A DNA stretch of 64,000 nt from an uncultured Bacilli bacterium (GCA_947589675.1 CANQCI010000001.1:7156-71155); one strand, 5' to 3'; positions 10,131 through 61,632 are shown, counted from the stretch's first letter. Numbers and translations are program-made. The notes: generated by a model not told the origin, from the sequence alone.

Positions 10131-10131
10131 T

Positions 10132-44151: not shown

Positions 44152-44394
44152 ATGGATAATGAAAACATGAATAATAAAATAATTATTAATGGAATAGAAT
44201 ATGAAATTGTAGCTTATTTAAAAAATGAGAATGGAAATTACTTAGTTTATACAGATGGAAAAATATTAGAAAGTAATAATGTTGCTCTTTATGTAAATTT
44301 AGTAGTTATAGAAAATGGTGAATTTAAATTAGAAAGTATTGATGATACAGAAGTTTCCAATGTTATTGAATTATTGAAAGAGAGGTTAAAATAA
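44152..44394 (+). CDS. small DUF1292-like protein (80 aa)
   Basis: IEYEIVAYLKNENGNYLVYTDG ... VIENGEFKLESIDDTE..VIELLKE pattern. Paralogue of 61384-61632. Confidence 0.4.
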   Translation: MDNENMNNKIIINGIEYEIVAYLKNENGNYLVYTDGKILESNNVALYVNLVVIENGEFKLESIDDTEVSNVIELLKERLK

Positions 44395-45713
44395 TGATTA
44401 TATCATCTAGATTGGTAGAATTAATGAATTATAAAGATTTTTTAGAATATGAAATTAGACTTCGAGAAACTATTAGACCTTTTGATTTTGTGTATTTAAA
44501 CGGCAGGGCTAATAAGACATTAGGAACATTAAAAGCTGCTTTAGTTGAGATGGAAAATATTTTAGTTAATATTGAACAAATCACTAAATTAAGTAATATG
44601 TTAAATGATGTAAAAAAAATAAAACCTTTACAACAAGAATTAGAACAAAATAGGAAAGCTAAAGAAGCTGTTAAAAATATTGATACTATTAGTAATGATG
44701 TAAGGAAAGATTTAAACGGGTTACAAGAACAATTTTTTACTCAACTACAATATTGTTATGACTTGAAAAATAAAGTTGCTCAACAAATTGTTGATTATGA
44801 AGAAAGAAAAAACTATGATAAAAAAACTGAAGAGTTTGCTTCTTTAGCTCGCAATTCTTTAGTAAATAAAGGAAGGGTTCCTTTTCAACAAGAAACCTTG
44901 CTGCAAGATGCAAATGAAAAAGTAAAAGAACATGATGAAAAAGCAACTACAATAGATAAAGATTATGCCTTTTTAAGTAGTCACGAAAATACTTTAGATA
45001 GAGCTCTAAATGCTTTGGAGGATATTTTAAAAACTCCAGCTACTTTTTCGGAAAGACAAAATGTTGGGTTACAAACTAAAATTAAAAAGGAAGTAGCCAA
45101 CATAAAAAAAGCCTTACCACCTAAAGTTATTTTGGTTTCAAAAGAGTCATTGAGTAAATTAAGAGAATCTGATCAATTAACCAATGATTTAAGATTTATT
45201 CAAGCTTTATTACAAAATCCCCCAACTTTAGTCAATAGAAGTTATTGGGAATATAATGCTCGAATAGATAAAATTAGAAATTTATTAGATCAAGCTTTAC
45301 AATTTGAAGAAAAAAGAAAATCTAATATTGAACAAGAACGCAATACAATAGCCAAAAAAGAAAAGTTTGCTACCGATGCGGTTAATAAATATGCTAATAT
45401 TTTAAATGATAATCAAATAACTCAACAATCGCAAATTCATATTGAAAATGGTCAATTTGATTTACAAGCTGAAAATGAAAGATTAAAATTGGCACGTGAT
45501 GAAGCCTATAGAAATGGTGATTACGAAAAAGCTCGAAGTATTCAAGAAACCATATCTGCTAACGAAAAAACTATCGCGGGAATAATGAGTAAAAGTGCTG
45601 TTACCACATTACCTTTAGAGTATACGGATATGAAACAAAAATTAAAGAATATGAGTTTTTTATATCAAAATGATGATTCGCAAACTTTATCAAATGAAGG
45701 AAGACCGAGATAA
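44394..45713 (+). CDS. hypothetical coiled-coil protein (439 aa)
   Basis: Helical and coiled-coil throughout. Translationally coupled to its flanking small genes (TAATG overlaps). Confidence 0.45.
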   Translation: MIISSRLVELMNYKDFLEYEIRLRETIRPFDFVYLNGRANKTLGTLKAALVEMENILVNIEQITKLSNMLNDVKKIKPLQQELEQNRKAKEAVKNIDTISNDVRKDLNGLQEQFFTQLQYCYDLKNKVAQQIVDYEERKNYDKKTEEFASLARNSLVNKGRVPFQQETLLQDANEKVKEHDEKATTIDKDYAFLSSHENTLDRALNALEDILKTPATFSERQNVGLQTKIKKEVANIKKALPPKVILVSKESLSKLRESDQLTNDLRFIQALLQNPPTLVNRSYWEYNARIDKIRNLLDQALQFEEKRKSNIEQERNTIAKKEKFATDAVNKYANILNDNQITQQSQIHIENGQFDLQAENERLKLARDEAYRNGDYEKARSIQETISANEKTIAGIMSKSAVTTLPLEYTDMKQKLKNMSFLYQNDDSQTLSNEGRPR

Positions 45714-46000
45714 TGTCCCAAAAACAAGATGTATTTAATTCTTTTATGGATGAGTTTGTTAAACTAGACATAAGTCAAAAGAACCACGAAATAATTGAAA
45801 AACAAAAATTAATAATAGCTTTTTTATTTAAGTATGCTACGGAACATGGAATAAAATATGAATCTATAAAAAGTAAAGAAATTAATGATATTATGGAAAA
45901 TAAGGGAACTAATGAAGACTATTTAGAGGCTATGATGGTTTATACTCATAATATTGAAGAATTAATTGGACTTATTTTAAATCGAGGAAATTATAAATAA
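45713..46000 (+). CDS. small helical protein (95 aa), paralogue of 61089-61382
   Basis: EAMMVYTHNIEELIGLIL aligns with EAVFVYINAIKELIGNYV in the 61089 ORF. Confidence 0.4.
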   Translation: MSQKQDVFNSFMDEFVKLDISQKNHEIIEKQKLIIAFLFKYATEHGIKYESIKSKEINDIMENKGTNEDYLEAMMVYTHNIEELIGLILNRGNYK

Positions 46001-46036
46001 AAACAACCTATCATATGCGAAGATGGTTGTTTTTGT
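45999..46036 (+). terminator. rho-independent terminator
   Basis: AAACAACC-tatcatatgcgaagat-GGTTGTTTTTGTT. Confidence 0.4.
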
Positions 46037-46245
46037 TCTTTCGTTACAGTTCAGTCAGATAAATACAGGGATTGAGGGACATTTTTAGTATAAAAATAAT
46101 GTTTTTTAGCAAAAATTCAGTCAATATTTATAATTTTTGCTCTAAAAAGAGAATTTGATACTTTATTAAAAATATCTATTATTCCCATTAATTACAATGG
46201 TTTATTTATATTTTTAATTCCTTGACTGAACTGTAACGTTCTTTC
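46036..46245. mobile_element. MITE-like element / IS footprint: 16-bp perfect terminal inverted repeats flanked by a 7-bp direct repeat
   Basis: TTCTTTC[CGTTACAGTTCAGTCA ...165 bp... TGACTGAACTGTAACG]TTCTTTC. The interior is non-coding and holds a nested IR GCAAAAATT/AATTTTTGC. Confidence 0.45.
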
Positions 46246-46333
46246 ATTTGAATAGGTGAATAAGTATTTAAAATGAATTTAATTTATGATATATTATGTT
46301 TAGCAAAGATTTATTTAGAAAGGACAATAATAT

Positions 46334-47413
46334 ATGAAAAAAGATACTTATGTAAATTATATAAAATATACTTTAAGCACCTATAATAAAGCAAATAAGA
46401 GAGAATTAATAAAGTTATATAAAGATGCTAATTTAGTAAAGGAAAAAAATGCTTATCCAACTATATTTGATGATGATTTAGTGGATATAGATTATACTAA
46501 TATGGATAATACTATTATTGATTGTATAAAAAAGCATGATGAGGCAATTGAAATATATGAAAAATATCAATTTACAAAAGCATATAAATATGCCGTTTTA
46601 TTTAAATGTTCTGATTTTGAAAAATTGTTATTAAAAATAGATGAAATCGCTGAATATGAATATAATAATACCAATGTAAAACTATTTGATGAATTACAGC
46701 AGCCCACTAAAATAATATATAATAATGACAGTATATTATTGTTTAATAAAAAGTTTGAAGCTGTACACCCTCAAACTGGGGAAGAATTATTATTACATTA
46801 TCCATTATTAGCCATAGTTCACAAAGAAAGTAAACTTGTTGAATTTAGATTTGATACAATAAAAAGGCTGTTTACTGATGGAGATAGAGACCAAAATATA
46901 TATGTGAAATTGATTGATGAATTAATAAATTATTTTAAAACAACGTTCGACAGTGATTTGTTGGCTATTAATTTAGATTTTATGATTGAAATAACAAAGG
47001 AGGAATCTAATAAAAATATTAAATTATTATCGCAATACATGTTTTTAAAAGATGGTGGTAAAGCCCAATTAACAGTGGGCAATAATGAAGAATATGTGTT
47101 ACCAATTATAGGAGAATTAAAAAACATAATCAATGAATTAAGAGAAGAACTAGACAAAAATGTCAAAATTAAAGACGCTTTAGAACAGTTTGTATATGAA
47201 AAAGAAGAAACGACAGATTATCCTTGGATTGAAGTTTTATTTTTGGATGAAGAGGGAATAAAAACTAGAAATAATCATGTAAAATTTACATTTAACTATA
47301 TGAACAGAAATTATTGCTTAATAACATATTATTATAATGATACATTAATTGAAATGGAGAGGATGAATAATGTCACAAGATTTATTGGAAAAAATATTGA
47401 AAGACAAAATTGA
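46334..47413 (+). CDS. hypothetical protein (359 aa)
   Basis: First gene of a tightly overlapping three-gene operon. No motif recognised. Confidence 0.45.
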   Translation: MKKDTYVNYIKYTLSTYNKANKRELIKLYKDANLVKEKNAYPTIFDDDLVDIDYTNMDNTIIDCIKKHDEAIEIYEKYQFTKAYKYAVLFKCSDFEKLLLKIDEIAEYEYNNTNVKLFDELQQPTKIIYNNDSILLFNKKFEAVHPQTGEELLLHYPLLAIVHKESKLVEFRFDTIKRLFTDGDRDQNIYVKLIDELINYFKTTFDSDLLAINLDFMIEITKEESNKNIKLLSQYMFLKDGGKAQLTVGNNEEYVLPIIGELKNIINELREELDKNVKIKDALEQFVYEKEETTDYPWIEVLFLDEEGIKTRNNHVKFTFNYMNRNYCLITYYYNDTLIEMERMNNVTRFIGKNIERQN

Positions 47414-47714
47414 TTTAAATCTTGATGAAGCGATAAAATTTTTAATGAAATTTAAAAAAAATGAATATATTTATCCAAGTACAATTAAAAGAAATTTAAA
47501 GATAGATGATAAAAAAGTTTATGAGGTATTAACACTATTGGAAAATGCTGGTATTATAAAAATGTATTATGAATTTTTTTGCTACAATTGTAATAATTCA
47601 AAAGGTTTGTATACCTATTTTAATGAATTAAACGATGAATTAGTTTGTGATTATTGTGAGAATAAACTAAATAGTAATGATAATATTAAAATAGTGTATA
47701 AGGTGATTAAATAA
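47370..47714 (+). CDS. small winged-helix plus C4 zinc-ribbon protein (114 aa)
   Basis: ...KVYEVLTLLENAGIIKMYYEFFCYNCNNS...CDYCENKL. Overlaps the upstream gene by 44 nt. Confidence 0.45.
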   Translation: MSQDLLEKILKDKIDLNLDEAIKFLMKFKKNEYIYPSTIKRNLKIDDKKVYEVLTLLENAGIIKMYYEFFCYNCNNSKGLYTYFNELNDELVCDYCENKLNSNDNIKIVYKVIK

Positions 47715-47716
47715 GC

Positions 47717-48412
47717 ATGAATGATATAGATAGTATAACAACGGCGTTTAAAAATTTGGGTAATGAAATATCTTATAAAAAAATATGCGAATTTACCGAT
47801 AATCAAAGAAAAGAATATAAAATTCTTTTAGCTAATTTAGAAAAAGTAAATTCAACAAAACAATCATCAAGCGAAAAAGGAAAGGCACTTGAAGATATTG
47901 CTTCATTTGTTTTAAAAACAAGCAATATTTTTGATGTGTATCAGAATATATTGACTTCAACAAATGAATTAGACCAATTAGTTAGAACTAATAATAAAGG
48001 TAAAATTTTATTTTCGAATGGGATAATTGATAAAAGACTAAAAAGTTTTATATGTGAATGTAAAAATCATAAAGAAAAAATTTCTGTAACTTATGTTGGT
48101 AAGATATGCAGTTTATTATCTACAACAAAAAATAAAATTTGTATTTTATTTTCTTACTATGGAGTTTCTGGTAAAGAATGGAAAGATTCTGTTGGATTAA
48201 TAAAAAAGTTTTATTTGTCAAAAGAAAATGAAGAAGATAGATATTGTATAATAGATTTTAATATAAAAGATTTTATAAGTATAGAAAAAGGTAACAATAT
48301 TCTTCAAATTATAGAAGATAAAATTTTGGCTTTACAAAATGATACTAATTACATATATTTGTTAAGTCCACATGAATCGGAAAAGAAAGTATTAGAATTA
48401 CAAGAAATATAA
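47717..48412 (+). CDS. restriction-endonuclease-fold (Mrr_cat-like, PD-(D/E)xK) protein
   Basis: GKALEDIASFVL ... TNELDQLVR ... FICECKN ... ILFSYYGVSGKEW fits the Mrr catalytic-domain pattern (E...D...ExK). Confidence 0.5.
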   Translation: MNDIDSITTAFKNLGNEISYKKICEFTDNQRKEYKILLANLEKVNSTKQSSSEKGKALEDIASFVLKTSNIFDVYQNILTSTNELDQLVRTNNKGKILFSNGIIDKRLKSFICECKNHKEKISVTYVGKICSLLSTTKNKICILFSYYGVSGKEWKDSVGLIKKFYLSKENEEDRYCIIDFNIKDFISIEKGNNILQIIEDKILALQNDTNYIYLLSPHESEKKVLELQEI

Positions 48413-48506
48413 TCGGATATATTTCTTTTTTTATTGACTGAAATATTTTTCTTCCCTTATAAGCCAAAATATGTTAAGATAGAAAAATTAAAAAGGGGGA
48501 AAACTG

Positions 48507-49970
48507 GTGAAAATTTATGATAAGCTAATAAATAGAATTAGTGAAACAAAATATTTAAATGCCGAAAATTCCTATCGCTATCGACCCATTATGCGGGTAT
48601 TTTATAATCATTATATTAAGTTAGAATATTGGCTTTATAAAGAAGATATTTATAATGAATTAAAAGATAATGCCATATTTAGTGAGTATACTTTAGATGA
48701 TTGCGAACGAGATTTAGATATATTAACTGAATGGTTAAGTTTAACAAGACTTCAAGATACCAAAAATGCTTTATCACTTCCAGAATTTAAAAATAAAAAA
48801 TTTCGTTATCAAATGACTGAGTATGCTACCGAGATTGAAAGATTAGTCATATCTTTAGAAGAATTGGAAATCAAGGCTTCTTCATTGGAACCTAAATTGT
48901 TTGATCGCTTAAAAGATACAATTGCTAAATTAGAAAATACTATTTCTTTAAGTCCTGATGAAGTTAACGAAATATGGAATGATTTAAATGATAATTTTAC
49001 AAAACTAAATGAAAGTTATCAAGATTTCTTAAAGAAATTTAATGAACCTAAAACTGAGGAGTTATTTCAAGGAGAAGCATTTTTAAAATATAAAACGGAA
49101 ATAATAAGTTATTTAAGAAATTTTATTCAAAGTTATCAACAAAATATAAATAAGATAAAATATAGTATAAACAAAATTGATGAAGAAATAAAATTAGATT
49201 TTATCAATAAATTAGTAAGATATAATGAACAAAATCCCTTATTAAATCAAAATTTTGATTTTGGTTATTTTAAAGAATTAAATTTTGATAAACTAACTAA
49301 TATTTTGAAATGGTTTGTTAGTAATGATTCTACCTTAAGTGAAGGTCAAAAATTAATGGATACAACCGATAATATTATTGTTTCTCTTACCAAGTATGCC
49401 AATTCTTTAATTGAACTGCGAGGGAATATGACTAGCCGCAAGGAGGAATATAAACATCTTTGTCAACAATTTGATAAAATAAGTAACATGGATGAAGCTC
49501 ATAGACTTGCTGCGGTTATCTTAGGTATAAGTAATGTTAGACATTTTTTAGGAAATTCTAATATTACGACTGATACAATTGTAAATACTTATGATAATCC
49601 ACCTCTGGAAATAATTTTATCATCAAGAACCAAAAAACGAAAAGAAAAGATTGATTTAAAACCTATTGAAGATAAAACGCTGGCGAAAAGAAAAATTTTA
49701 GAGGAATATCGTTTAGAGCAAGAAAAAAATAAAGAAATATTAAAGAGTTTGATAAAGAATAAAAAAATAATTTTAGAAAATGAGAGACAATTAACGAAAA
49801 TTGAACGCCGGTATATTCAAAAATTATTAGCATCATCGCTAACACATAAAGAAACGGAATTTGGGCTAAGTTATAAAATCAAGAAAAAAGAGGGAACATG
49901 TAAAATAGTATCGGAGGATGGAATATTTTATATGCCAAGTTTAGATATAGAATTTATGGGGGATATATGA
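48507..49970 (+). CDS. jetA: Wadjet JetA (TIGR02677/DUF3375 family, kleisin-like)
   Basis: The N-terminal NAENSYRYRPIMRVFY motif is characteristic of TIGR02677. 487 aa. GTG start after an AAGGGGGAAAA RBS. Confidence 0.75.
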   Translation: MKIYDKLINRISETKYLNAENSYRYRPIMRVFYNHYIKLEYWLYKEDIYNELKDNAIFSEYTLDDCERDLDILTEWLSLTRLQDTKNALSLPEFKNKKFRYQMTEYATEIERLVISLEELEIKASSLEPKLFDRLKDTIAKLENTISLSPDEVNEIWNDLNDNFTKLNESYQDFLKKFNEPKTEELFQGEAFLKYKTEIISYLRNFIQSYQQNINKIKYSINKIDEEIKLDFINKLVRYNEQNPLLNQNFDFGYFKELNFDKLTNILKWFVSNDSTLSEGQKLMDTTDNIIVSLTKYANSLIELRGNMTSRKEEYKHLCQQFDKISNMDEAHRLAAVILGISNVRHFLGNSNITTDTIVNTYDNPPLEIILSSRTKKRKEKIDLKPIEDKTLAKRKILEEYRLEQEKNKEILKSLIKNKKIILENERQLTKIERRYIQKLLASSLTHKETEFGLSYKIKKKEGTCKIVSEDGIFYMPSLDIEFMGDI

Positions 49971-51136
49971 TAGATAAACATACAAAAGAATTAGAATATT
50001 TATTAAATAATTTTTGGTGTCTTAAAGATCAAAATCCTAGCTTATATTGGGAAATAAAAAATAATTTAGATTATTATAAAGACTTTGTCCAAACGAAATT
50101 AGGAAGTGTGCTTATTGTTAACGATCGTTTAATAAAATTAGAAAAGATTCCCACTATTCCTAAGGCTTATATGGGAATTAATGCTTTTGGGCAACCTTTA
50201 GAATATGTTCTTTTATTTCTTATTTTATTATTTTTAGAAGATAAACCAAAATCTAAACAATTTATTCTTTCTAATTTAATTGATTTTATTGATAATACGG
50301 CAAGAGGATTAGAGCTTGATCATTTACCGGATTGGAATATATATCAACATCGGAAATGTTTAGTTAATGTGATGCATCATTTGGAAGATATGGGGATTAT
50401 TAAGGTAGTTGACGAAATCTATAATTTTTCGGAGGATAAACAGGCTGAGGGGTTATATGAATCAACTGGGATATCAAATTATTATATTCGCAGATTTCAA
50501 AATAATATTTTAAATTATGAAACAATTGAAGATTATTTAAATGATGAATATACTAAGTATACCGATAAGGATATAAAAAGAATGAAAATTTATCGAAATT
50601 TATTATATTCACTCGTTATTTATCCAGAAGAGTTAACGGAGTTTGAATGGGATTACTTACGCAAATTTCGGGGAACTATAAGTAATGAATTAAGTAAATA
50701 TACGGATGGGGAATTAGAAATCACTAAAAATATGGCATTACTTTTATTTCCTATGGAAGGACGTCAAAGTTATGATTTTCCTAATTCTAAAGCTATATGT
50801 GATATTATTTTATTAATTAATAATTATCTTTTAGAATTAGTAGATAAAGGGGAATTACAATTAAATCAACAAGAAATAATTGTTATATCAGAAGAATATT
50901 TCAAAAGAATTATTAAAGAAGTTAGAAATGAATCAGGTTTATATTTTAGTAAATATTATAAAGATTTATCTTTTACTAGTTTTTATCAAGATATAGTAGA
51001 ATGTATGCAGGAATATGATTTTCTGAAAATAAATGATTTAGAAGTTAAAATATATCCTATGGTTTCAAAATTAATTGGGTATATACCGCAAGATCCTTTA
51101 CAACAATTAGATTTATTTGGGGGTAATTATGAATAG
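49967..51136 (+). CDS. jetB: Wadjet JetB (TIGR02678-like)
   Basis: 389 aa. Its start overlaps the jetA stop (ATGA) and it lies between jetA and jetC. The assignment rests on position and size. Confidence 0.6.
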   Translation: MIDKHTKELEYLLNNFWCLKDQNPSLYWEIKNNLDYYKDFVQTKLGSVLIVNDRLIKLEKIPTIPKAYMGINAFGQPLEYVLLFLILLFLEDKPKSKQFILSNLIDFIDNTARGLELDHLPDWNIYQHRKCLVNVMHHLEDMGIIKVVDEIYNFSEDKQAEGLYESTGISNYYIRRFQNNILNYETIEDYLNDEYTKYTDKDIKRMKIYRNLLYSLVIYPEELTEFEWDYLRKFRGTISNELSKYTDGELEITKNMALLLFPMEGRQSYDFPNSKAICDIILLINNYLLELVDKGELQLNQQEIIVISEEYFKRIIKEVRNESGLYFSKYYKDLSFTSFYQDIVECMQEYDFLKINDLEVKIYPMVSKLIGYIPQDPLQQLDLFGGNYE

Positions 51137-54100
51137 ATATAAAGTAACAAAAATTGGTTTATTAAATTTTTGGTTATATGATGAAGAAGAATATGATTTT
51201 TATGGAGGAAAGTTAATTTTAAGAGGAGCAAATGGCAGTGGAAAGTCTGTTACCATGCAATCTTTTATTCCTTTGATTTTAGATGGCAATAAAAGTCCTG
51301 AGCGATTAGATCCATTTGGTTCTAAAGAACGAAAAATTGAGGATTATGTTTTAGGAATTGATGATTATTTACAAAAAGAAGAATCGACAGCTTATTTATA
51401 CATGGAAACTTATAATTCTTCTTTAAATAAATATTTAACGATTGGTTTAGGTTTTCGAGGCAGAAAAGGTCGTCCTGTGGAATCTTGGGGTTTTGCCCTA
51501 AAAGATGGTGCCCGAATAGGACATGATTTTTATTTATATAAAGACCCTGTTAATAAGATTCCTATTAGCAAAAATGAATTAAAAAGTCGGCTAGGAACCA
51601 TAAATGAATTTTGGGATAATATGAAAGATTATAAAGCTATGGTTAATCGGCTTCTTTTTGGTTTTCCTAATTTAGATGCCTATGACGAGTTTATTAAACT
51701 TCTTTTACAATTACGAAGTAATAAATTATCAAAAGATTTTAAACCAACTAATTTAATTAATGTTTTAAATTCTGTGCTACAGCCTTTAACAGAAGAAGAT
51801 TTACGCCCTTTAGCCGAGGCTATTGAACAAATGAATAAAACCAAAATAGACATTGAGTTATTAGAAAAAAGTCAAAAATCAGTGCATGATTTTTTGAAAG
51901 TATATAATAATTATAATGAATCTATTCTTTTAGATAAAACTCGTCGTTATAAAGAAGTTCAAGATTTTTATAATAATTTATTGAATGATATAAAGATAAA
52001 AAATAACTTTTTAAAAGAATGTTCTACTAATTTAGAAAATAATAAAAAACGTTTTAATAAAGTTATCGAGGATATCGAGGTTAATAAAGAGAAGAAAGAA
52101 CAATTAGATGATAGTGATTTAAAACAAAAAATTGAATCATTAGCATCTTTAGAAGACAATATTAAAAATCTGGCAAATAAAATCGAGGAATTAGAGCAAA
52201 AAAATGATACTTTGCAACAAGATAAGTTAGCTTTAAATAATAAAATTTCCACAAGTGAAGATGAAATATATAAATTAAGAAAAGAAATAAAAGAAGTTTT
52301 AATTGATTTAAAAGATTTAAGTAATGATGCTTATAGTGGAAAATTAGTTAATTATGTGGAAATGCTTGAAAATGATTTATTTAGTGTTTCAATAGATGAT
52401 TTATTAATTTCTTTAAAAAACTATAAGGAAAAAGTAACTAAGGTTTTAAAACTATTAGAAGAGGAAAATGATATTAATTTAGAAAGTGAAAAGCAAAGAA
52501 TTGAATTTGCCAAATTAACTCAAGAATATCAAGAATTAGAAAAACAAATTATGTTAGCTCAAAAGAATTTGACCGAGGCTATAATGGCATGGCAAGAAGA
52601 TTTTATTAATAAGGAACATAACAATAATTATTTAAAATTAACCGATTATGTTAAAAAGCAAATTTTGGAATTAATGAATGATTATACCAAGGCAAATTTT
52701 GAAAAAGTTGTAAATATTTATAAAGATTATGCTCAAGATTTAATAAATGGCGTTATCAAAGAAAATTTAATATTGCAAAATAAAATAGATTCAAAGAAGT
52801 TAGAATTAAGCACTTTAGAAGAGGAATATCATAAATTAGAAAATCAAGATGATTTAGAAATTCCCTCTTTAAATAAAGATATTGCTGAAATTTTAAAGAA
52901 TAACAAAATAGAAAATATTCCTTTATATAAATGTTTAGAATTTAAAAATAATATTTCTGATACGGAAAAGAATAATATTGAATCTTTATTACTAGATTTA
53001 AATATTTTAAATGCTTTAGTTATTAAACCAGAAGACATAGACAAATTAGATAATATTAAAACGCCAATTATTTATTTAACTAAATCAACAAAGAAAAAAG
53101 ATAATATCTTAAAATATTTTAATATTGTAATTCCCAATGGTTCTTCTATTAAAGAAAGTTATTTAAAAGAAATTTTAGAATCTATTAGTATCAATCCCGA
53201 TGACCTGGTGGCAATTGATCCTAAGGGGAAAGCCAAAATGGATATGCTTAATTTTCTTCCTGATTATACTTATAAACAAAAGTTTATTGGCTTTTTAAAA
53301 AGATTAGAATTAAAAAAGAAACAATTAGCCGAATTACAAGAAAAAATTACCTTAAATAAGGAAGAAATTAATAATATCAATAGTTTAATTGTTAGTAATG
53401 AAAATAAAATAGAAATTTTAAGAAAAGAACAAAATAATATCCCAAATAATGATTTTATAAAAGGAATAGAGAATAATATTGAAGATTTAAAACGTAATTT
53501 AAATTGGACAGATAAAAAACAAAAAGAAGTTGAAGAAAGTTTAAAAATAATAGATAATAATTTGAAAAAAGTTAAAACCGAAATTATGAATAATAAGGAA
53601 GGTTTAGTAATTCCTTTAAATATTGTTACTTATCAACAAACTTTAACTGTTTTAAATAATATTAATGAAATTGTGCAAAGTTTTCATGTTACATTAAAAT
53701 CTTTAGATAATAAATTAGAAATTCAAAAAAGTTATCAAGAACGCTTAGAAGATGTTACGAATAATATTGAATATTCTTTAGATGAACAACGAGAAAAAAA
53801 TAAAGAATTACAAGTAATTAAAGCGAAAAAAGCTACGATTGAAGAGATATTAGAAACTAAAGAATTTAAGGAACAAAAAAATCAACTTTTAGAAATTGAA
53901 AAAAACTTACATGATTTAACCTTAGAAAAAGATAGTTTAATTAAGGATATTGCTAAATTAGAAAATGAACTTGAACATCAACAAGAAAAAATAAATGAAT
54001 TAAATAATTTAAAAGAAAAAAAGGAAAAAGAAGCTAATGCTTATCAAGATATATTTTTAAGAGAATATAAATTAGGTTATGTTTATCAAGAAGATATTAC

Positions 54101-55205
54101 GAATATAAGTGATACTGTTAAAAGAATTATAAATGCGGGTAAAGATAAAAAAGAAATTGATTTAAATTCGTTAGCAAATAGTTTTTTTACAGCTTATAAT
54201 AAATATTCTTTAGAATTAAATGATTATTATTTTCAAATAATTACTATCTTTGAGGATTATGAAATAGAAGATAAAAATATAGCGAAAATTTATCAAGAAA
54301 ATAAAAGAATAGATATAACAACCTTGTATCAAGGAATAAAATTAAATATCTTTGAATTAAAAGAAAAAATAGATAATGATATTTTAGCCAATAAAGATTT
54401 AATTAATGAACAAGATAGACGGTTGTTTGAAGAAATATTATTAAATACGGTTGGGGAAAAAATAAGAAATAAAATTAATGATTCTAATGAATGGATTAAA
54501 AAAATAAATGATATTATTGCGGAGATGCAAAAAGAAAGTGCCCTTAGTTTTAAATTAGTTTGGAAAAGCATTAATGCCGAAAGTGAAGATGAGATTGATA
54601 CCAAAGAATTAGTGCGAATCTTAAAAATGGATCCCCATATGTTAAAAGAAGTTGATGCCGAAAAATTAACTAATCATTTTCGCAGTAAAATTAAAAAAGC
54701 CGAAGAGTTATATCAAGATTCATATGCTTCTTTTACCAAAATTATTGAAGAAATTTTAGATTATCGTTCGTGGTTTACTTTTCAATTATGTTATCAAAGA
54801 AAAGGAAATGAATTTAAAGAATTAACTGATAAAACCTTTGCTAAGTTTAGTGGGGGTGAAAGAGCGAAGAGTATGTATATTCCTTTGTTTGCCAGTGTAT
54901 ATGCTAAGTTATTTATGGCTAGGAGTGATTCTTTAAGATTAATTGCTTTAGATGAAGCTTTTGCGGGAGTAGATGAAGAAAATATTCGGGAAATGTTTGG
55001 TATTTTAAAAAAATTAGATTTAGATTTTATTATCAATTCCCAAGTTTTATGGGGCGATTATGATACAATTGACGATTTATCTATGTGTGAATTAATAAAG
55101 CCTCCCAATTCTTTAGCAGTTTCTGTTGAAAGATATCGCTGGAATGGTAAATATAAAGAAATAATTGTTGATAGAAAAAAATATAATGAGGAACATAATG
55201 CATAG
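51129..55205 (+). CDS. jetC: Wadjet JetC, SMC-like ABC ATPase (TIGR02680 family)
   Basis: N-terminal Walker A GANGSGKSVTMQS, ~900 aa of coiled coil, then a C-terminal signature/Walker B ...FSGGERAKSMYIPLFA ... LIALDEAFAGVDEEN. ~1358 aa. Confidence 0.85.
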   Translation: MNRYKVTKIGLLNFWLYDEEEYDFYGGKLILRGANGSGKSVTMQSFIPLILDGNKSPERLDPFGSKERKIEDYVLGIDDYLQKEESTAYLYMETYNSSLNKYLTIGLGFRGRKGRPVESWGFALKDGARIGHDFYLYKDPVNKIPISKNELKSRLGTINEFWDNMKDYKAMVNRLLFGFPNLDAYDEFIKLLLQLRSNKLSKDFKPTNLINVLNSVLQPLTEEDLRPLAEAIEQMNKTKIDIELLEKSQKSVHDFLKVYNNYNESILLDKTRRYKEVQDFYNNLLNDIKIKNNFLKECSTNLENNKKRFNKVIEDIEVNKEKKEQLDDSDLKQKIESLASLEDNIKNLANKIEELEQKNDTLQQDKLALNNKISTSEDEIYKLRKEIKEVLIDLKDLSNDAYSGKLVNYVEMLENDLFSVSIDDLLISLKNYKEKVTKVLKLLEEENDINLESEKQRIEFAKLTQEYQELEKQIMLAQKNLTEAIMAWQEDFINKEHNNNYLKLTDYVKKQILELMNDYTKANFEKVVNIYKDYAQDLINGVIKENLILQNKIDSKKLELSTLEEEYHKLENQDDLEIPSLNKDIAEILKNNKIENIPLYKCLEFKNNISDTEKNNIESLLLDLNILNALVIKPEDIDKLDNIKTPIIYLTKSTKKKDNILKYFNIVIPNGSSIKESYLKEILESISINPDDLVAIDPKGKAKMDMLNFLPDYTYKQKFIGFLKRLELKKKQLAELQEKITLNKEEINNINSLIVSNENKIEILRKEQNNIPNNDFIKGIENNIEDLKRNLNWTDKKQKEVEESLKIIDNNLKKVKTEIMNNKEGLVIPLNIVTYQQTLTVLNNINEIVQSFHVTLKSLDNKLEIQKSYQERLEDVTNNIEYSLDEQREKNKELQVIKAKKATIEEILETKEFKEQKNQLLEIEKNLHDLTLEKDSLIKDIAKLENELEHQQEKINELNNLKEKKEKEANAYQDIFLREYKLGYVYQEDITNISDTVKRIINAGKDKKEIDLNSLANSFFTAYNKYSLELNDYYFQIITIFEDYEIEDKNIAKIYQENKRIDITTLYQGIKLNIFELKEKIDNDILANKDLINEQDRRLFEEILLNTVGEKIRNKINDSNEWIKKINDIIAEMQKESALSFKLVWKSINAESEDEIDTKELVRILKMDPHMLKEVDAEKLTNHFRSKIKKAEELYQDSYASFTKIIEEILDYRSWFTFQLCYQRKGNEFKELTDKTFAKFSGGERAKSMYIPLFASVYAKLFMARSDSLRLIALDEAFAGVDEENIREMFGILKKLDLDFIINSQVLWGDYDTIDDLSMCELIKPPNSLAVSVERYRWNGKYKEIIVDRKKYNEEHNA

Positions 55206-56430
55206 TTATACCAAATATTTTAAAGAACAAATCGGTTTTAAAAGATTTATGGAAGCTTTATATCAAAAATATCTTTCTTTAGGTAAAATAACCGGAAAAA
55301 TATCTTTAGAAAGACTTACCAAGGAAGAAGCTCATGTTTTATCGAAACTTTTTGGCTATAATTATCAAGAAGCAACGGATTTTAAAATTAGTGTTTTAAC
55401 TTTTACTAAAGTTATGGCAGCCTCTAAATATGAAGATTTTGATTTAAATACTTTAGTCGAAGAATATTTAGGGGTTAAATTAGTTTCTAAAAAAGAAACA
55501 AAAGAAAAAGAAAGAGAAGAAGAAAGGGCATTTTACCAAAATATATTAGACGAAAGTAAAGCTAGTAAATGGTTATTAAATGTAATTGAAACCAAAGAAA
55601 ATCCTTATTCTTCTCTGCATAAAAGATATTTAAAAGAAAAAGAGTTATTGAAAAAGGAGTTAGTAAATGTATTAGCTTTACTAAATAACTTACCGAAAGA
55701 AAGAACTTTAATTTCGATTTATGCTGCCAACATTACCATGGATCCTCATTATTTAGATTTAGATAATAATCATTGTCTGTTGTTTTTCTCCGGCTTAGCT
55801 TATTTTAGTCACTGTTCTTATCCTTTAACTAGGGAAGATAAAATAAAATTATTATCTTTAAATAATATAGAAATAGATAATTTATCTAATTTTGTCATAA
55901 CGTATAATTTGCATACTAATAGAGAATATTTAAATAACTTTTATCAAACAAAAGAACCTGTTATTTTGAATATTCAAAATATTTTAAATATTGATTATAT
56001 AGAGGGAATAAATCAAAAAATAATAATTGTGGAAAACCCGTCAATATTAAATGAAATTATAGCACGAAAGATGAATGTAAGTGTTATAGTTTCTGGGGGA
56101 TTTGCCAATACAGCTGTTTATTTACTTTTAGATAAAATCAATAATAATCAATTATTTTATAATGGGGATTTTGATCCCGAAGGATTACTTATTGCTCAAA
56201 AATTAAAAGAAAAATATCCTAATTTACAATTATTTTGTTATCAAAAAGAAGATTATGAAGCATCATTTTCCAAAAATGAAATTAGTAATGCGAGAATTAA
56301 TAAATTAAAAGGTATAAAAGAAAAAGATTTAATGGTTATAAGTAATTTAATTAAAACTAAAAAGAATGTTGCTTATCAAGAAAATAATAAAGAAAGAATT
56401 ATGGAATTTATTAAAAAATTATATTGGTAA
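55198..56430 (+). CDS. jetD: Wadjet JetD (TIGR02679; C-terminal Toprim-like DUF2220)
   Basis: C-terminal IIVENPSILNEI ... VIVSGGFANTAVYLLLDKI ... FYNGDFDPEGLLIAQKL matches the Toprim DxD core. The start is taken at ATG 55198 with a GAGGAA RBS; the ORF track opens at TTG 55165. Confidence 0.75.
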   Translation: MHSYTKYFKEQIGFKRFMEALYQKYLSLGKITGKISLERLTKEEAHVLSKLFGYNYQEATDFKISVLTFTKVMAASKYEDFDLNTLVEEYLGVKLVSKKETKEKEREEERAFYQNILDESKASKWLLNVIETKENPYSSLHKRYLKEKELLKKELVNVLALLNNLPKERTLISIYAANITMDPHYLDLDNNHCLLFFSGLAYFSHCSYPLTREDKIKLLSLNNIEIDNLSNFVITYNLHTNREYLNNFYQTKEPVILNIQNILNIDYIEGINQKIIIVENPSILNEIIARKMNVSVIVSGGFANTAVYLLLDKINNNQLFYNGDFDPEGLLIAQKLKEKYPNLQLFCYQKEDYEASFSKNEISNARINKLKGIKEKDLMVISNLIKTKKNVAYQENNKERIMEFIKKLYW

Positions 56431-56447
56431 GATTGATAAAATACTAT

Positions 56448-56490
56448 GGCTATCAACCAGTACTACCATTGGAATTGATAGCCTTTTTTT
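56448..56490 (+). terminator. rho-independent terminator after jetD
   Basis: GGCTATCAA-18 nt-TTGATAGCC followed by T7. Confidence 0.5.
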
Positions 56491-56877
56491 AATTATAACT
56501 TAAGTGATTTTGGAAATAAATAAAATTAAGAAACAATAACAAAATAATATTATAGTAATGCTGGTGTTATTGTTAGCAAGAGGTACTTATTTAGGATTTG
56601 CCCAATATTTTGTTGATAATTTGAAATATTATCCAATGAATATTCTATAAATAAAGATGAGTATTTAGTAAATATATTTGAAATATCTAGTTTTGATTTT
56701 GAATTTGAAATTTTAGATAATAATTTGTTAGAATATTTAAAAAGTAAACAAAATGTTGTATTATAAGCGTAAATAAATAATTTTTAATGTTGATTATTTA
56801 TTTAGGATTTATTATGTATTATATATAATAATCCACAAGTAATATGTTATAATGAATATAGTATAGTAGGTGATTAG

Positions 56878-57714
56878 GTGAATAAGAAAAAAGAAGAAAT
56901 AACTAGAAAAGATTTAAAAAAAGATTTTTTAAAACAATCGATAATCAGAATAGATTATGATTATATGTTCGATGAATATATAGAAGAAACTATGAAAAAA
57001 ATTGATGATTTTTTGGGTGATAAAGGATATACTATAAAAAATAATTTTATGTCTAAATTTGGGCTAAAAGTAGATATTGATAAGTTGAATGATGACGTAA
57101 ACACTAATATAATGGATACCATAAATGTAGAATCAGACAAAAGAGAGAAGTTTTTTTCGTTTGTTAATGAGAACAAAAATATAAGGATTGATATTACTCG
57201 AGAATATTCGGCTATTACTGTCGAATACGTTGAACATATTCATTTTGATGAGATTTATGATATTTTTAATGAGATAGTTAAGGAATTACGAAATGCAAGA
57301 AGAAATCTGCAAATTAAAAGATTAGGATTAAGGAAAATTAATATTTTTATGATGAAAGATATTTCTAAAATAAATAATTTTTTTGAAGAAAATACTTTCA
57401 ATTACTCTGATAAAAATCTATCATCATATCAATTTATTGGTAAGAACTCTTTAGTTAATTATAAATGTGGGGATTATCTTGTAAATCAAATAGCAAATAT
57501 TGCCCAAGGATATTTGCAAACAGATGATTCTTCTCAACTTTTGTATCAATTAGTACTTGATTTTGATATTTATATTGAAAATCTTACCAATCAAGAAATA
57601 TTAAAAGATATGAATGATAAACTGTTTGAAATATATAAAAATTCTTTGACAGAAAGTTTTTTAAATGAATTATTAATTGAAAATTTTAATAATGAGGAGA
57701 TTTTTAAATTATGA
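56878..57714 (+). CDS. hypothetical protein (278 aa)
   Basis: GTG start with a GGTGA RBS. First gene of a three-gene operon. No motif recognised. Confidence 0.45.
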   Translation: MNKKKEEITRKDLKKDFLKQSIIRIDYDYMFDEYIEETMKKIDDFLGDKGYTIKNNFMSKFGLKVDIDKLNDDVNTNIMDTINVESDKREKFFSFVNENKNIRIDITREYSAITVEYVEHIHFDEIYDIFNEIVKELRNARRNLQIKRLGLRKINIFMMKDISKINNFFEENTFNYSDKNLSSYQFIGKNSLVNYKCGDYLVNQIANIAQGYLQTDDSSQLLYQLVLDFDIYIENLTNQEILKDMNDKLFEIYKNSLTESFLNELLIENFNNEEIFKL

Positions 57715-57920
57715 TTTTTACAATGAATAATGCCGGAGTAACGACAAATGAAATTTATAATAAAACGAAAATAGTTCTTTCACAATCTGTGAATAATTCT
57801 AATTATAATTCTAAAATAAATAGTAAAGTTTTTAAACCGGTAACAAGTATTTCATTTTCCTTAAGTTCATCAAACAAAAATGTTAACTATAAAAAGGTAA
57901 AACAAACTAAAAATGGATAA
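57711..57920 (+). CDS. small low-complexity S/N-rich ORF (69 aa), uncertain
   Basis: Overlaps both neighbours (ATGA at each end). It may be a real linker gene or an artefact. Confidence 0.25.
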   Translation: MIFTMNNAGVTTNEIYNKTKIVLSQSVNNSNYNSKINSKVFKPVTSISFSLSSSNKNVNYKKVKQTKNG

Positions 57921-58923
57921 TAGTTTTTTTCTCAAAAATAATTTAATAGTACGTATATATACAGTAGGATTTAATCCAGAAGGGGAATCAATCTTATTTA
58001 CAATAAATGATGGTGATTACATTTTATTTTCGGGATTAATTGATTGCTTCATTCCTGAAAGTAATTATTTATTAAAATTATTTGTTGATTTAAAAATAAA
58101 GAAATTGAATTACTTGTGTATAACTCATCCAGATTTTGATCACTGTATTGGCATTCAAAATATTATTGCAAAAATAGATAAAAATACGAAAATAGTGGTA
58201 CCTAGTAAAATATTTGACTTTATGGATCAATATGATTCACGAGTTAAGGAATCTTTAGAAGTTTTAAGAAAATTATTAAGCATGAACTCAAATAATAAAA
58301 GAAAACCAATTTTTAATACAGTAAGTGATAATTGTGATGTAGTTGATAATTGGAATTTTATTGATAGCCGAGGTAAGATTAGCGAGCTTAAAATTAAGAC
58401 TATCACACCCATCGCAAATATTATTGAACGATATGCATACAAGCAATCTATGCAAGATATTAAAATTGAACATAACTATTTTTCAATCATTAACCTTATT
58501 CAAATTGGTGATGTTAAAATATTATTAACTGGTGATGCAATGAACGATAGCATAAAGGAAGCGTTTAATAATCTTACAAAATTTGGAAGTGAGTTTTTTA
58601 ATTCTAAAATAGATTTTGTAAAAATACCCCACCATACTTCTATTGGTTCAAATTTATTATTGAGTAAAATAAAAGAAAATGAAAAAGGAATTGGGGTTTC
58701 GGTAACAACTGTTTTTAAAAGTAGTAATTTGCCAAACTATGCTTTATTTACAGATTATAATGCTTATTCTGATATTTCTTTTTGTACCTGTTCGGAAAAA
58801 TCAGAAATAGGGAAAAAAGGTATAGTATTATATGAAGCCGATATTACTAGTTCCCAAAAAAGAGTATATCTTGCTGGTGCTGCAGTAAATTTTAAAAATT
58901 ATAAAATGGAAATTATCCATTAA
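57913..58923 (+). CDS. MBL-fold metallo-hydrolase (336 aa)
   Basis: CITHPDFDHCIGI (HxDxDH variant) and later LLTGDA ... KIPHHTS. Confidence 0.55.
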   Translation: MDNSFFLKNNLIVRIYTVGFNPEGESILFTINDGDYILFSGLIDCFIPESNYLLKLFVDLKIKKLNYLCITHPDFDHCIGIQNIIAKIDKNTKIVVPSKIFDFMDQYDSRVKESLEVLRKLLSMNSNNKRKPIFNTVSDNCDVVDNWNFIDSRGKISELKIKTITPIANIIERYAYKQSMQDIKIEHNYFSIINLIQIGDVKILLTGDAMNDSIKEAFNNLTKFGSEFFNSKIDFVKIPHHTSIGSNLLLSKIKENEKGIGVSVTTVFKSSNLPNYALFTDYNAYSDISFCTCSEKSEIGKKGIVLYEADITSSQKRVYLAGAAVNFKNYKMEIIH

Positions 58924-59023
58924 TGTATATGAATTATTACTGTATCAACCCATTATTAAATATAGTCTTTTAATTTACTTTTGATGTTGTTGATGTTATA
59001 CTTTATTTATAGTAGGTGATAAG

Positions 59024-59293
59024 ATGGAAGATAGCGATTTAAAACAATTAGAACAACAAGAAGATATGGTTATAGGTAATTTTGAAATTCCTATCGATAA
59101 AATGACTACAATATCTTTAACTGAAAAAGAAGTAAAACAGGCAAATGCAGCAAAACAAAGATATGATAAAATGGCTGTTGTTCGTGATCAAATGGGAAAA
59201 ACAGCTAAAACTAGTTCTTTGTTATTTGGCTATAATAAAAAAGGAATAAAACTTGCTGATGGTGATTATATAAGTGCCCCAGAATTATCCTAA
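59024..59293 (+). CDS. N-terminal fragment of an interrupted gene (89 aa); an in-frame TAA separates it from 59426-61108
   Basis: Same reading frame as the downstream ORF. The 44 intervening codons are stop-free and protein-like. Confidence 0.4.
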   Translation: MEDSDLKQLEQQEDMVIGNFEIPIDKMTTISLTEKEVKQANAAKQRYDKMAVVRDQMGKTAKTSSLLFGYNKKGIKLADGDYISAPELS

Positions 59294-59425
59294 GCTATTA
59301 TAGAAGCTGTTGCTAATTTAAAAGAAGGTACTAAGGTTGTAAGTCGTAAAGGAAAAACACTTAATCCTGATGATTTATTAGCAACAGTAAAAGAAGCTGC
59401 TGGTGCTATTATTGTAACCGAAAAA

Positions 59426-61108
59426 ATGCCGAATGGTAATCAATATCGTTGGAGTGTTAAAGGAGCCGAAAGTGGACCTACTGTTAGTAAAGGTATTGCA
59501 ATGGTAGGTAATAAAATAGCATTAAAAAACGGCGATTATTTAAGTGCTGATGAAATACTTAAAGCTTTAAGTGATTATGTTATTGTGGAGAAAAAGGATA
59601 AACCAATCCCGCCCATCCCGCCAATTCCTCAACCGCCGTCAGTACCGCCAACACCGCCAGTACCTCCGGTGCCACCAGAACCTCCAGTGTCCATAGAGCC
59701 GCCGGAACCAACAGTCAATACTGTACATACTGTGCGAGTTGTTCGTAAGTATAGAAACCGTTTGTCTGCATGGTTAGCAACTCTTGCTGTTTCATTATTT
59801 TTAATTAGTGGAGTGGGAAAAGCGAGTAGCAAGTCAACTATTGACGTTCCCAAAAATGTAACAGATGAACTAGTACAAATAGTTACAAGTGAAAATTTGG
59901 ACTACGATATTAATAAGATAGACTATGAAGGATTAACTTCTGAGCAAGCTATATTAAAGCAAGTGTTATCACATATGAATATGGGAGATTATGCAAAAGT
60001 AGAAGATGGCGATGTTTTAACAACAATGGGGGACTTAACTGGAACTGCTAAAGAAATGGGTAAAGAGTTTGCTCTAGAAGGAAAACAAGCTGGGGATTAT
60101 GCTATCACAGGTATAGCTGTTGTTCATGATGGTAAAGTAATTGATTATATTGAATCATTTAATTTAGAAGATACCTCAACAAATCTAGGCGATTATGTAA
60201 TGAATGTTTGTAATAAACATGGTTTATCTTTTGGTGATATAAAATTAAATGTTCATATGGGTAGTAATACAGAGGTTACACGTTTAGGTTGGATAGATGG
60301 ATCAGCAATTTTTGAAAATCCCGAATTAACCGAACAAGCTATGCAAGAGATTGTAAATAAAGGATCATCTTATCAAGGAACTATTGAAGATTTTAAAGGG
60401 AATTTTATTACGTTAGATAATGGTGCTACAATTAATATTAGGGATAATATGGGTAATTTATTACAATCGGGTACGCATGTTATTGGTAGTGATGGTGGAG
60501 AATACATTATATCGGATTTATCGATAGAGCAAAAAAGAGATAATAATCCTGAGGCAACTCATCCAATTATGCCGGAAGAAGAAATGTCTGAGAGTACGAA
60601 AATTACTTGGCGTATTCAAGACTGTAAAGTGGCGGTTGCCATTGCCCCTTTAGTGGGAGCTTTAGCTGCATCAGTTGCAACGAAAAAGAAAAATGATGAA
60701 GAAAATAAAAATCCCCAATTTTATAAATTTGAAGATGAACCAGAATATAAAAAATTTCGTGATGATTTTATTCGTAATGGTGAAGAGTATCGTAAAAAGT
60801 CTAGCTTTGGCAAAATGGTAAAACGGATTTTCTATCGTAAAGAAACAGATGTTATGCAAAATCTTACTGAGGAACAAGTACGTGAGTTATATAAAATTAT
60901 ACATAGTTTAAATACTAGTGATTATCATTATCAAAGTACGGATCATATAATAATGCGTGATGGATATATCATCGCCGAAAAAGTTGATGGTACTATTATT
61001 GATATAACGGATACAGTTATGCCATATATAGCTAATATAGGATCAATTAATAGGGTAGATGCAGAAGGTCGATTAGAAGGGGAAGAAGATGGAACTAAAC
61101 ACAGATAA
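59426..61108 (+). CDS. Pro-rich, single-TM surface/secreted-type protein (560 aa, possibly 694 aa with the upstream fragment)
   Basis: PIPPIPPIPQPPSVPPTPPVPPVPPEPPV, then TM LATLAVSLFLISGV, then a large extracytoplasmic domain. The N-terminal motif KIALKNGDYLSADEI repeats the KLADGDYISAPEL of the upstream fragment. Confidence 0.5.
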   Translation: MPNGNQYRWSVKGAESGPTVSKGIAMVGNKIALKNGDYLSADEILKALSDYVIVEKKDKPIPPIPPIPQPPSVPPTPPVPPVPPEPPVSIEPPEPTVNTVHTVRVVRKYRNRLSAWLATLAVSLFLISGVGKASSKSTIDVPKNVTDELVQIVTSENLDYDINKIDYEGLTSEQAILKQVLSHMNMGDYAKVEDGDVLTTMGDLTGTAKEMGKEFALEGKQAGDYAITGIAVVHDGKVIDYIESFNLEDTSTNLGDYVMNVCNKHGLSFGDIKLNVHMGSNTEVTRLGWIDGSAIFENPELTEQAMQEIVNKGSSYQGTIEDFKGNFITLDNGATINIRDNMGNLLQSGTHVIGSDGGEYIISDLSIEQKRDNNPEATHPIMPEEEMSESTKITWRIQDCKVAVAIAPLVGALAASVATKKKNDEENKNPQFYKFEDEPEYKKFRDDFIRNGEEYRKKSSFGKMVKRIFYRKETDVMQNLTEEQVRELYKIIHSLNTSDYHYQSTDHIIMRDGYIIAEKVDGTIIDITDTVMPYIANIGSINRVDAEGRLEGEEDGTKHR

Positions 61109-61382
61109 AGAATTTGATATGTATGTAGAATCATATAAGAAATTGCCTTTAATTGAAAAAAAGAAAATAATTGAAAAAGAATTTAAAGAAATAATAAGTA
61201 CTTTTTATGGTTTAATTAATTGTCATAATGTTAATCCTAAAGTATTATTTAATCGAGAAATATTAGATTTAAACAAAGAAGAGTTTACTGAGGATGATTT
61301 TGCTGAAGCTGTCTTTGTATACATAAATGCAATTAAAGAATTAATTGGTAATTATGTTGACATTGTTGAAAGGAATGAATAA
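61089..61382 (+). CDS. small helical protein (97 aa), paralogue of 45713-46000
   Basis: The C-terminal ...AEAVFVYINAIKELIGNYV aligns with the 45713 ORF. Confidence 0.4.
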   Translation: MELNTDKEFDMYVESYKKLPLIEKKKIIEKEFKEIISTFYGLINCHNVNPKVLFNREILDLNKEEFTEDDFAEAVFVYINAIKELIGNYVDIVERNE

Positions 61383-61383
61383 T

Positions 61384-61632
61384 ATGGAGAAATTACAATT
61401 TGGAGAAACAGCTGTCTTAGAAGATGGTAAAGAATATGTTTGCTTTTGTGAACTAGAAGATAATGGTAATAGTTATGTTTATTTAGTAACAGCTAGTAAG
61501 CCTGTGGAAGTATGTTTTGCCAAGCAAAGATTAGAAAATGATAATCTTGTATTAGATTTGGTTTCTAATCAAAATGAAAAAGAGCATCTTTTAGCCTTAT
61601 TCCAAGAAAAGATGGGAAGTTATATTGGTTAA
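61384..61632 (+). CDS. small DUF1292-like protein (83 aa), paralogue of 44152-44394
   Basis: LEDGKEYVCFCELEDNGNSYVYLVTASKPVEV ... EKEHLLALFQE. AAAGGAA RBS before ATG 61384. Confidence 0.4.
   Translation: MEKLQFGETAVLEDGKEYVCFCELEDNGNSYVYLVTASKPVEVCFAKQRLENDNLVLDLVSNQNEKEHLLALFQEKMGSYIG

Follow-up and report, generated by a model that had tools for sequence, protein, structure and literature searches.

Small acidic proteins of the DUF1292/UPF0473 family (PF06949, B. subtilis YrzB type) are encoded by housekeeping genes that occur throughout the Firmicutes in a yrzL-yrrK-yrzB operon, and IreB/ReoM is the helical neighbour of the canonical family. A search of the literature revealed no function assigned to DUF1292 or YrzB, and nothing on the DUF7045 family, which is also considered below. 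Here, two gene modules, at least one of which encodes a DUF1292-like protein, were analysed in a 64,000-nucleotide stretch of DNA (the window, with positions counted from its first nucleotide) from an uncultured Bacilli bacterium (GCA_947589675.1, CANQCI010000001.1:7156-71155). Module 1 lies at positions 44152-46000 and module 2 at 59024-61632. Whereas the canonical DUF1292 gene stands in an ireB/yrzL-ruvX-yrzB operon with no comparable genes beside it, each module combines a gene for an ~80-residue protein with one for a large protein and one for a protein of about 100 residues, the latter referred to here as h100. The two modules are a real feature, not a product of chance, and a small helical protein of a new kind is common to both.

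The h100 family and its DUF1292-like companions

Module 1 is encoded on the plus strand and begins with dufA (44152-44394), recognised from the open reading frame (ORF) call and Pfam, the product of which is an acidic DUF1292-like protein of 80 residues (pI 4.3). The TAA stop codon of dufA overlaps the ATG of the second gene, cc439 (44394-45713), by 1 nt, forming the sequence TAATG at 44394. The cc439 gene encodes a soluble, coiled-coil-rich protein of 439 residues, with neither a transmembrane (TM) segment nor a known domain, and a second TAATG stop/start overlap, at 45713, joins it to the h100 gene (45713-46000), which encodes a 95-residue member of an acidic four-helix family. Module 2, also on the plus strand, has a different gene order, as had been proposed in an initial annotation made from the sequence alone. 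Here the large gene, big694 (59024-61108), comprises ~694 codons for a predicted two-pass membrane protein, interrupted by a nonsense codon, and its end overlaps the start of the 97-residue h100 gene (61089-61382) by 20 nt (61089-61108). A single spacer base at 61383 separates the latter from dufB (61384-61632), which encodes an acidic, 82-residue protein that is possibly a distant DUF1292 relative. Frames of 80, 439, 95, 97 and 82 residues are thus present where the initial annotation had placed them. The small proteins of the modules are all acidic (pI 4.3-5.3) and lack TM segments and signal peptides.

A similarity between the 95- and 97-residue proteins, including a common C-terminal motif, had been noted in the initial annotation, and all of the comparisons made here agree with it. 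The two proteins were aligned by BLASTP with an E-value of 3e-7, and by hhalign with an E-value of 1.8e-9 (probability 96%, 86 columns). To avoid circularity, hidden Markov models (HMMs) were also built from one module type each (the types are described below) and scored against all 174 window ORFs. A model of the module 2 type, composed only of sequences from other genomes, retrieved the 95-residue ORF with an E-value of 6e-17, a model built only from type III loci retrieved the same ORF at 8e-14, and a model built only from type I loci retrieved the 97-residue ORF at 8.5e-10, the next window ORFs all having E-values above 0.09. These sequence comparisons confirm that the two proteins are homologous over their whole length; they are ~30% identical, and in the family alignment the columns of the EA..VY...I.EL motif are invariant.

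Proteins of the h100 family are acidic and typically ~95-105 residues long. The family comprises 172 clusters at 90% identity, none of which carries a name or belongs to a Pfam family, and a set of 1.84 billion proteins contains 223 clusters of it at 50% identity. Nearly all of the matches are 85-120 residues long, a few being longer or fragmentary, with one matched stretch in each, and no domain fusions that might have served as Rosetta-stone clues were evident in this exhaustive search. The AlphaFold2 (AF2) model of the 97-residue protein has a mean confidence score (pLDDT) of 93, with helices at residues 7-17, 21-44, 56-62 and 68-93. Foldseek found no matching fold for this model in the PDB (best E-value 1.8) and no significant counterpart in a set of viral structures, and sequence-profile searches of the PDB with all five families of the study returned nothing meaningful. 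As modelled, h100 is therefore a previously undescribed family of small proteins with a confidently predicted fold that has no PDB match. A relationship to IreB/ReoM was considered and rejected, there being no match to a PDB fold or to a Pfam family. The best conserved part of the sequence, NKEILDL…TEDDF.EA..VY…I.EL, runs from a loop through the short third helix to the beginning of the last, and would be the likely contact surface of the protein.

The relationship of the ~80-residue proteins to DUF1292, and to each other, is less secure. Like canonical DUF1292 proteins, those of the dufA family are small, acidic, of the same length and alignable from end to end, the alignment covering positions 6-74 of the 75 in the Pfam profile. 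Unlike them, the window dufA protein scores 22.8 bits (E-value 1.7e-4) against a cut-off of 24 bits, and the window dufB protein has no match at E ≤ 0.1. Five of six dufA family members match DUF1292 at E ≤ 0.1 (best E-value 1.6e-5), and dufA is perhaps best viewed as a sub-threshold relative of borderline membership. Within the dufB family, two of eight members match DUF1292 (best E-value 0.011) and three of eight match DUF7045 (best E-value 4e-4); dufB orthologues are 76-85 residues long and have the same MEKL/MDKL start. BLASTP gave no alignment between the dufA and dufB proteins. Comparison by hhalign gave an E-value of 0.0025, which fell to 3e-4 with deeper alignments, at a probability of 40%, and in the cross-HMM searches of the window ORFs each found the other at E-values of 0.041 (rank 2 of 174) and 0.17 (rank 4). 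Homology between them is plausible on these sequence statistics. The proposal in the initial annotation that both proteins are DUF1292-like is thus borderline for dufA and weaker still for dufB, and the link between the two is marginal.

Gene architectures and the large partner proteins

The genes most closely related to those analysed are found in metagenome-assembled genomes labelled as uncultured Bacilli, from rabbit, rumen and human gut, and in Candidatus Coprovivens. A scan with an h100 peptide pattern, using one genome per species, detected the family in 14 of 185,579 species representatives (14 loci, one per genome). When the ORFs of all fetched loci were then classified one by one with local HMMs, a third architecture came to light, and the statements on architecture that follow cover those fetched loci in which the neighbouring genes are present on the contig. 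In each, the h100 gene adjoins one of three types of partner, and usually overlaps it or lies a few nucleotides away. Type I, exemplified by module 1, has the order dufA-cc439-h100 with a soluble coiled-coil partner of ~450 residues, and was found in seven further genomic contexts. Type II, exemplified by module 2, has the order big694-h100-dufB with a two-pass membrane protein of ~600-730 residues, and was found in more than 10 contexts; one locus (L029) has instead a third gene order, big694-dufB-h100. Type III, in which the DUF1292-like gene is missing, has h100 after a gene for a short coiled-coil protein of 120-180 residues (ccShort); a variant of it has the order h100-ccShort-h100. The DUF1292-like gene (~80 residues, acidic) is always present in types I and II. 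Linkage is strict and architecture-specific down to protein identities of ~25-30%, and the small proteins diverge together with their large partner and do not switch with it.

The three partner families are mutually unrelated, with hhalign E-values of 0.59 for cc439 against big694, as the initial annotation had anticipated in calling the large proteins non-homologous, and of 0.45 and 0.095 for the other comparisons. A shared h100-binding domain among the three partners was sought with the same alignments, and none was found. The C-terminal ends of the partners are alike in being basic or Gly-rich (…GRPR, …GTKHR, …MFR), a similarity that would stem from the position of the ribosome-binding site and overlapping start codon of the next gene, which fall there, as opposed to a shared motif.

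The cc439 protein has no significant match to any family in Pfam, NCBIfam, PHROGs or PADLOC, nor to PDB sequences. Its homologues (n = 10) are flanked by dufA and h100 in every case, and the proteins most similar to those of module 1, at 50-70% identity, belong to other lineages. The upstream regions of the module 1 loci were too divergent in alignment for a promoter to be read, and promoter and terminator scans within both modules were uninformative at the 26% G+C of this DNA.

The big694 gene of the window is exceptional in that homologues are all intact (n = 16, 628-730 residues). What the initial annotation had listed as a 560/694-residue protein is a single 694-codon frame, split by an in-frame TAA at 59291-59293 on the plus strand. 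The closest intact homologue, which is 93% identical, has a Gln codon (CAA) at this position and the sequence ELSQAII where the window has ELS*AII, indicating a single CAA to TAA change. TAA, TAG and TGA are all in use as stop codons in the window, and an alternative genetic code was rejected because TAA is the ordinary terminator of 34 of its 52 long ORFs. The allele represents either a pseudogene, a split gene or an assembly error. The protein was also described initially as exported, which is inaccurate since no signal peptide is present and a two-TM topology with cytoplasmic termini is predicted. The hydrophobic segments are at about residues 246-268 and 531-554; RVVRKYRNR precedes the first and KKKNDEENK follows the second, so that basic residues lie on the cytoplasmic sides. 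By the positive-inside rule, both termini are predicted to be cytoplasmic and the ~265-residue loop domain between the segments to be external. The predicted layout is accordingly an N-terminal cytoplasmic domain, a Pro-rich linker, the first TM segment, the extracytoplasmic domain of ~265 residues, the second TM segment and a C-terminal cytoplasmic domain of ~140 residues. The AF2 model reaches only a moderate pLDDT of 68, and neither the fold nor the sequence has a match in the PDB.

Scanning the region upstream of module 2 revealed a sigma-A-type promoter-like element with an extended -10 (58974-59002, plus strand; TTTACT-N17-TGtTATACT). Alignment of six loci showed it to be kept in divergent orthologues, with an invariant ATG.TATA.TTT and the ribosome-binding site AGTAGG. 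Neighbours of type II modules in other genomes include spoVS, sepF-divIVA (in Candidatus Coprovivens), tig and the alaS region.

Insertion of module 1 and the genomic setting

The relative closest to the window (L040, 95% nucleotide identity) aligns by blastn with positions 32429-35411, 38592-44020 and 58967-61647, and has 137 nt in place of the 14.9 kb at 44021-58966. The segment is accordingly an insertion, placed in the intergenic DNA directly ahead of module 2. In the relative, module 2 directly follows a cluster of four minus-strand genes, one with a KOW domain, in divergent orientation, while in the window the same four genes precede module 1. As judged from synteny, module 2 is resident and module 1 came with the inserted island, and the pair did not arise by local duplication. 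Synteny stops at 61647, and the downstream side of module 2 is thus variable also.

Module 1 occupies the left end of the island and is followed by three uncharacterised genes, a Wadjet system, a TIGR04255-family protein and an MBL-fold protein. The Wadjet system is a complete type II set (JetA2, JetB2, JetC2 and JetD2; 48507-56430), with very strong PADLOC and Pfam matches. The gene for the TIGR04255-family protein (56878-57714) is followed by a 69-residue ORF and then by that for the MBL-fold protein (57913-58923), which resembles defence effectors in matching the PADLOC models RTasMBL, LmuA and Avs1a; the interval 56878-58923 may be another defence module. Judged by sequence, the segment between the KOW-gene cluster and module 2 is a variable region or defence-island hotspot. 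No convincing att-type direct repeats were found at the ends of the insertion, and neither flanking repeats nor a recombinase were found.

Type I modules are inserted elsewhere as well. Locus L006 has an insert of ~5.8 kb (6993-12790) consisting of the type I triad, a large serine recombinase of 711 residues, a 47-residue ORF and a SIMPL protein, which sits between orthologues of genes that are separated in the window by only a 102-residue ORF (26855-27163). A SIMPL gene lies likewise downstream of the triad in locus L026. In loci L041-L044, present in many human gut samples, the triad is carried by an island (1959-9351) within a 7.6-kb segment that has gap on one side and, on the other, a duplicate of the last 207 gap codons with 97% identity (flanks 763-1767 and 9385-10008; 94% nucleotide identity over 671 nt), an arrangement that suggests integration into the 3' end of this gene. 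In a further locus (L008) a neighbour of the triad matches the candidate defence protein PDC-M03A. Comparison of these loci shows the type I triad as cargo of inserted islands in three lineages, that of the window included. A phage or plasmid origin of the modules was considered and rejected, since tblastn searches with big694, h100 and cc439 gave no match in 50,697 phage and 72,556 plasmid records, and IMG/VR contigs contained no relative of the module proteins.

Several other features of the window were recorded. The four-gene cluster (38593-43890, minus strand), which is conserved beside module 2 in the relative, encodes a 952-residue MBL/RMMBL nuclease-like protein, a 348-residue helix-turn-helix protein, a 190-residue protein and a 254-residue protein with a C-terminal KOW/NusG-UpxY-like domain, and has no PADLOC match. 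Downstream of module 2, at 61888-63389, are genes for a PRiA4_ORF3 protein, with the domain in two copies, and a UPF0158 protein. A second segment missing from the relative, of ~3.2 kb (35412-38591), contains a 103-residue ORF, a SWIM zinc-finger protein (35922-36923) and a 451-residue protein with no family match. The first 38 kb consists of ordinary Gram-positive chromosomal genes, including those for ribosomal proteins L13 and S9 and three tandem FemAB-family paralogues (2731-8107) interrupted by a Polysacc_synt/MurJ-type flippase, downstream of which (8895-14052) are FtsX and a PcsB-like M23 peptidase. An 826-residue ORF at 20960-23440, with no Pfam match at E ≤ 1e-5, lies in otherwise housekeeping surroundings, and an AbiD/Abi_2 abortive infection-type protein (27977-28906; PADLOC E-value 4e-55) adjoins an Amidase_3 gene.

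Possible function and comparison with known systems

The favoured interpretation, to which a probability of roughly 0.45 is assigned, is that the modules represent an undescribed family of accessory operons in gut and rumen Bacilli, in which small acidic subunits would serve to bind or regulate a large protein of varying kind, possibly in connection with genetic conflict. The tight coupling of the genes and their strict co-occurrence suggest that the small acidic proteins would be made in fixed proportion to the large protein, and would bind the big694 or coiled-coil partner in the cytoplasm, in the case of big694 via its cytoplasmic N- or C-terminal domain. They could then serve as dedicated stabilising or regulating subunits, whether as adaptor, chaperone or neutraliser. 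Sporadic distribution, mobility and dispensability make an accessory role of the conflict type, either defence or addiction, seem likelier than a housekeeping one, and the presence of one locus per genome, the defence neighbours and the nonsense allele of module 2 appear to point in the same direction. The accessory reading is ranked above the housekeeping one, albeit not by much.

Several points weigh against it. The complex of small subunits with a large protein is deduced from gene order alone; the relation between dufA and dufB is statistically insecure; no module protein matches a PADLOC defence model or a toxin or antitoxin family; and the genome-wide counts depend on one peptide pattern and on incomplete metagenome-assembled genomes. 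Furthermore, type II modules stand among housekeeping genes (SpoVS, SepF/DivIVA, tig and alaS) and have a conserved sigma-A-type promoter, a context that fits a housekeeping role in the envelope equally well.

A bolder form of the accessory interpretation is that h100 and the DUF1292-like protein constitute the regulatory or adaptor core of new modular, mobile conflict systems of gut Bacilli, in which an interchangeable large protein, be it a soluble coiled-coil sensor or effector, a membrane effector or a short coiled coil, is restrained or targeted by the small subunits. Such systems would provide defence or addiction unlike any catalogued, and module 1 would be replacing, or competing with, a decaying module 2. 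This more elaborate scheme is considered unlikely as a whole. Much the same standing is given to the idea that the modules encode a housekeeping scaffold of the envelope or of cell division, similar to DivIVA, EzrA or GpsB, in which the type II membrane protein or the coiled-coil proteins of types I and III would organise an envelope process, with h100 and the DUF1292-like protein as structural adaptor subunits and with the varied context merely reflecting poor synteny. The extended -10 promoter element conserved upstream of type II, the proximity of these modules to sepF-divIVA in Candidatus Coprovivens, to spoVS and to tig, the large extracytoplasmic domain predicted in big694 and the housekeeping nature of canonical DUF1292 genes across the Firmicutes are all in keeping with a scaffold. 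Against a scaffold speak the tiny and patchy family (223 clusters among 1.84e9 proteins; 14 of 185,579 species representatives), the carriage of type I by inserted islands in three lineages, the nonsense codon in the large gene of module 2 and the lack of relationship among the three partner proteins.

The initial annotation had interpreted conserved small partners around unrelated large proteins as the mark of a polymorphic toxin/immunity or secreted-effector locus. The pattern itself holds for h100, and probably for the second small partner, but the functional reading is unsupported. In a T7SS/LXG-like system the small proteins would act as targeting chaperones or as immunity proteins, and acidic, helical proteins of ~100 residues beside a large helical protein do recall WXG100 and Lap proteins, if in resemblance only; the association of the same small partners with unrelated large proteins and the mobility of module 1, beside conflict genes, would also suit such a system. 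The search for LXG, WXG and toxin domains that had been suggested for the large proteins was carried out by hmmscan of Pfam and NCBIfam with cc439, the 560-residue part of big694 and intact homologues as queries, and nothing matched: LXG, WXG100, DUF3130/DUF3958, EsaE, toxin, immunity and chaperone families were all absent at E ≤ 0.1. No toxin, immunity or chaperone family was matched by the module proteins in PHROGs or PADLOC, and the six module proteins had no match at E ≤ 0.01 to the 5027 models of PADLOC-DB v2, a library that evidently works on this window given the strong matches of the neighbouring Wadjet genes. Membership of h100 in the WXG100 (ESAT-6-like, PF06013) family was rejected, since neither of the window h100 proteins contains Trp, and hence a W-x-G motif, there is no Pfam match, four helices are predicted as opposed to a hairpin, and no ESAT-6-like fold was retrieved by Foldseek. 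Scored in 50-residue bins, the conservation of alignment columns stays level or increases towards the C-terminus (from 0.45 to 0.59-0.68 in big694, and from 0.52 to 0.70 in cc439), and C-termini that are conserved as well as N-termini, or better, are the opposite of what characterises a polymorphic toxin. Whatever the locus, modules of one architecture have flanking small genes from the same two families, with no toxin-specific variation in immunity genes, and big694 is predicted to have two TM segments and both termini in the cytoplasm. Neither EssC FtsK/SpoIIIE, WXG100 nor other T7SS genes are annotated within 6-10 kb in the annotated related loci, and T7SS genes were absent from the largest window ORFs, which were those scanned, most ORFs of positions 1-38000 being left unscanned. 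The toxin reading fails because no toxin or immunity signatures were found, an outcome that the initial annotation had itself set against it; the modules would appear not to be a polymorphic toxin/immunity locus, and a secreted effector is decidedly improbable. A conflict-type role as such is kept in view because module 1 is mobile cargo beside defence genes. Least credible of all is the view that the genes are unlinked hypotheticals, adjacent without meaning and alike only through one shared small domain family: no module protein has a known function and the DUF1292-like link is marginal, but linkage in the fetched loci is strict and architecture-specific even where the proteins are only about 25-30% identical, reading frames overlap at their start and stop codons, and whole triads have moved into different islands.

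Should the accessory interpretation be correct, h100 would be a portable partner for three unrelated proteins, and DUF1292-like proteins would have, for the first time in this analysis, a fixed set of genomic partners. Module 1 and Wadjet appear to have been delivered together into a hotspot for defence islands in these uncultured gut Bacilli. If the modules are conflict systems, then an uncatalogued type would be added to those described; as envelope scaffolds they would instead be cell-biological components specific to their lineage. Their present value is as a clean hypothesis of a three-protein complex, with no demonstrated new mechanism.

Comparison with described systems beyond canonical DUF1292 reveals partial likenesses. 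The LXG loci of type VIIb secretion systems (T7SSb), with Lap and WXG100 proteins, similarly encode acidic helical proteins of ~100 residues beside a larger helical protein, and similarly pair one small partner family with different large proteins. However, the modules show no likeness in sequence or fold to WXG100, LXG or Lap, have no W-x-G, no variable C-terminal toxin domain, no variation in immunity genes and no T7SS genes nearby, and one of the module partners is an integral membrane protein. The FliS-FliC and FliT-FliD chaperone pairs resemble the modules in that a small, acidic, helical protein of ~100 residues is encoded directly after a helical or coiled-coil client; h100 has no PDB fold match (best Foldseek E-value 1.8) and its loci contain no flagellar or type III genes, and so the likeness is offered as analogy only, for a protein that might bind the terminal region of its neighbour. 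With small anti-phage and toxin-antitoxin modules of defence islands, the present modules share their organisation as compact, translationally coupled units of two to three genes, their sporadic distribution and their residence in inserted islands, beside Wadjet, the MBL effector-like gene, the serine recombinase and the PDC-M03A-like gene. They differ in that they match no PADLOC model and no toxin or antitoxin family and contain no recognisable enzymatic or pore-forming domain, and in that type II loci are often found among housekeeping genes.

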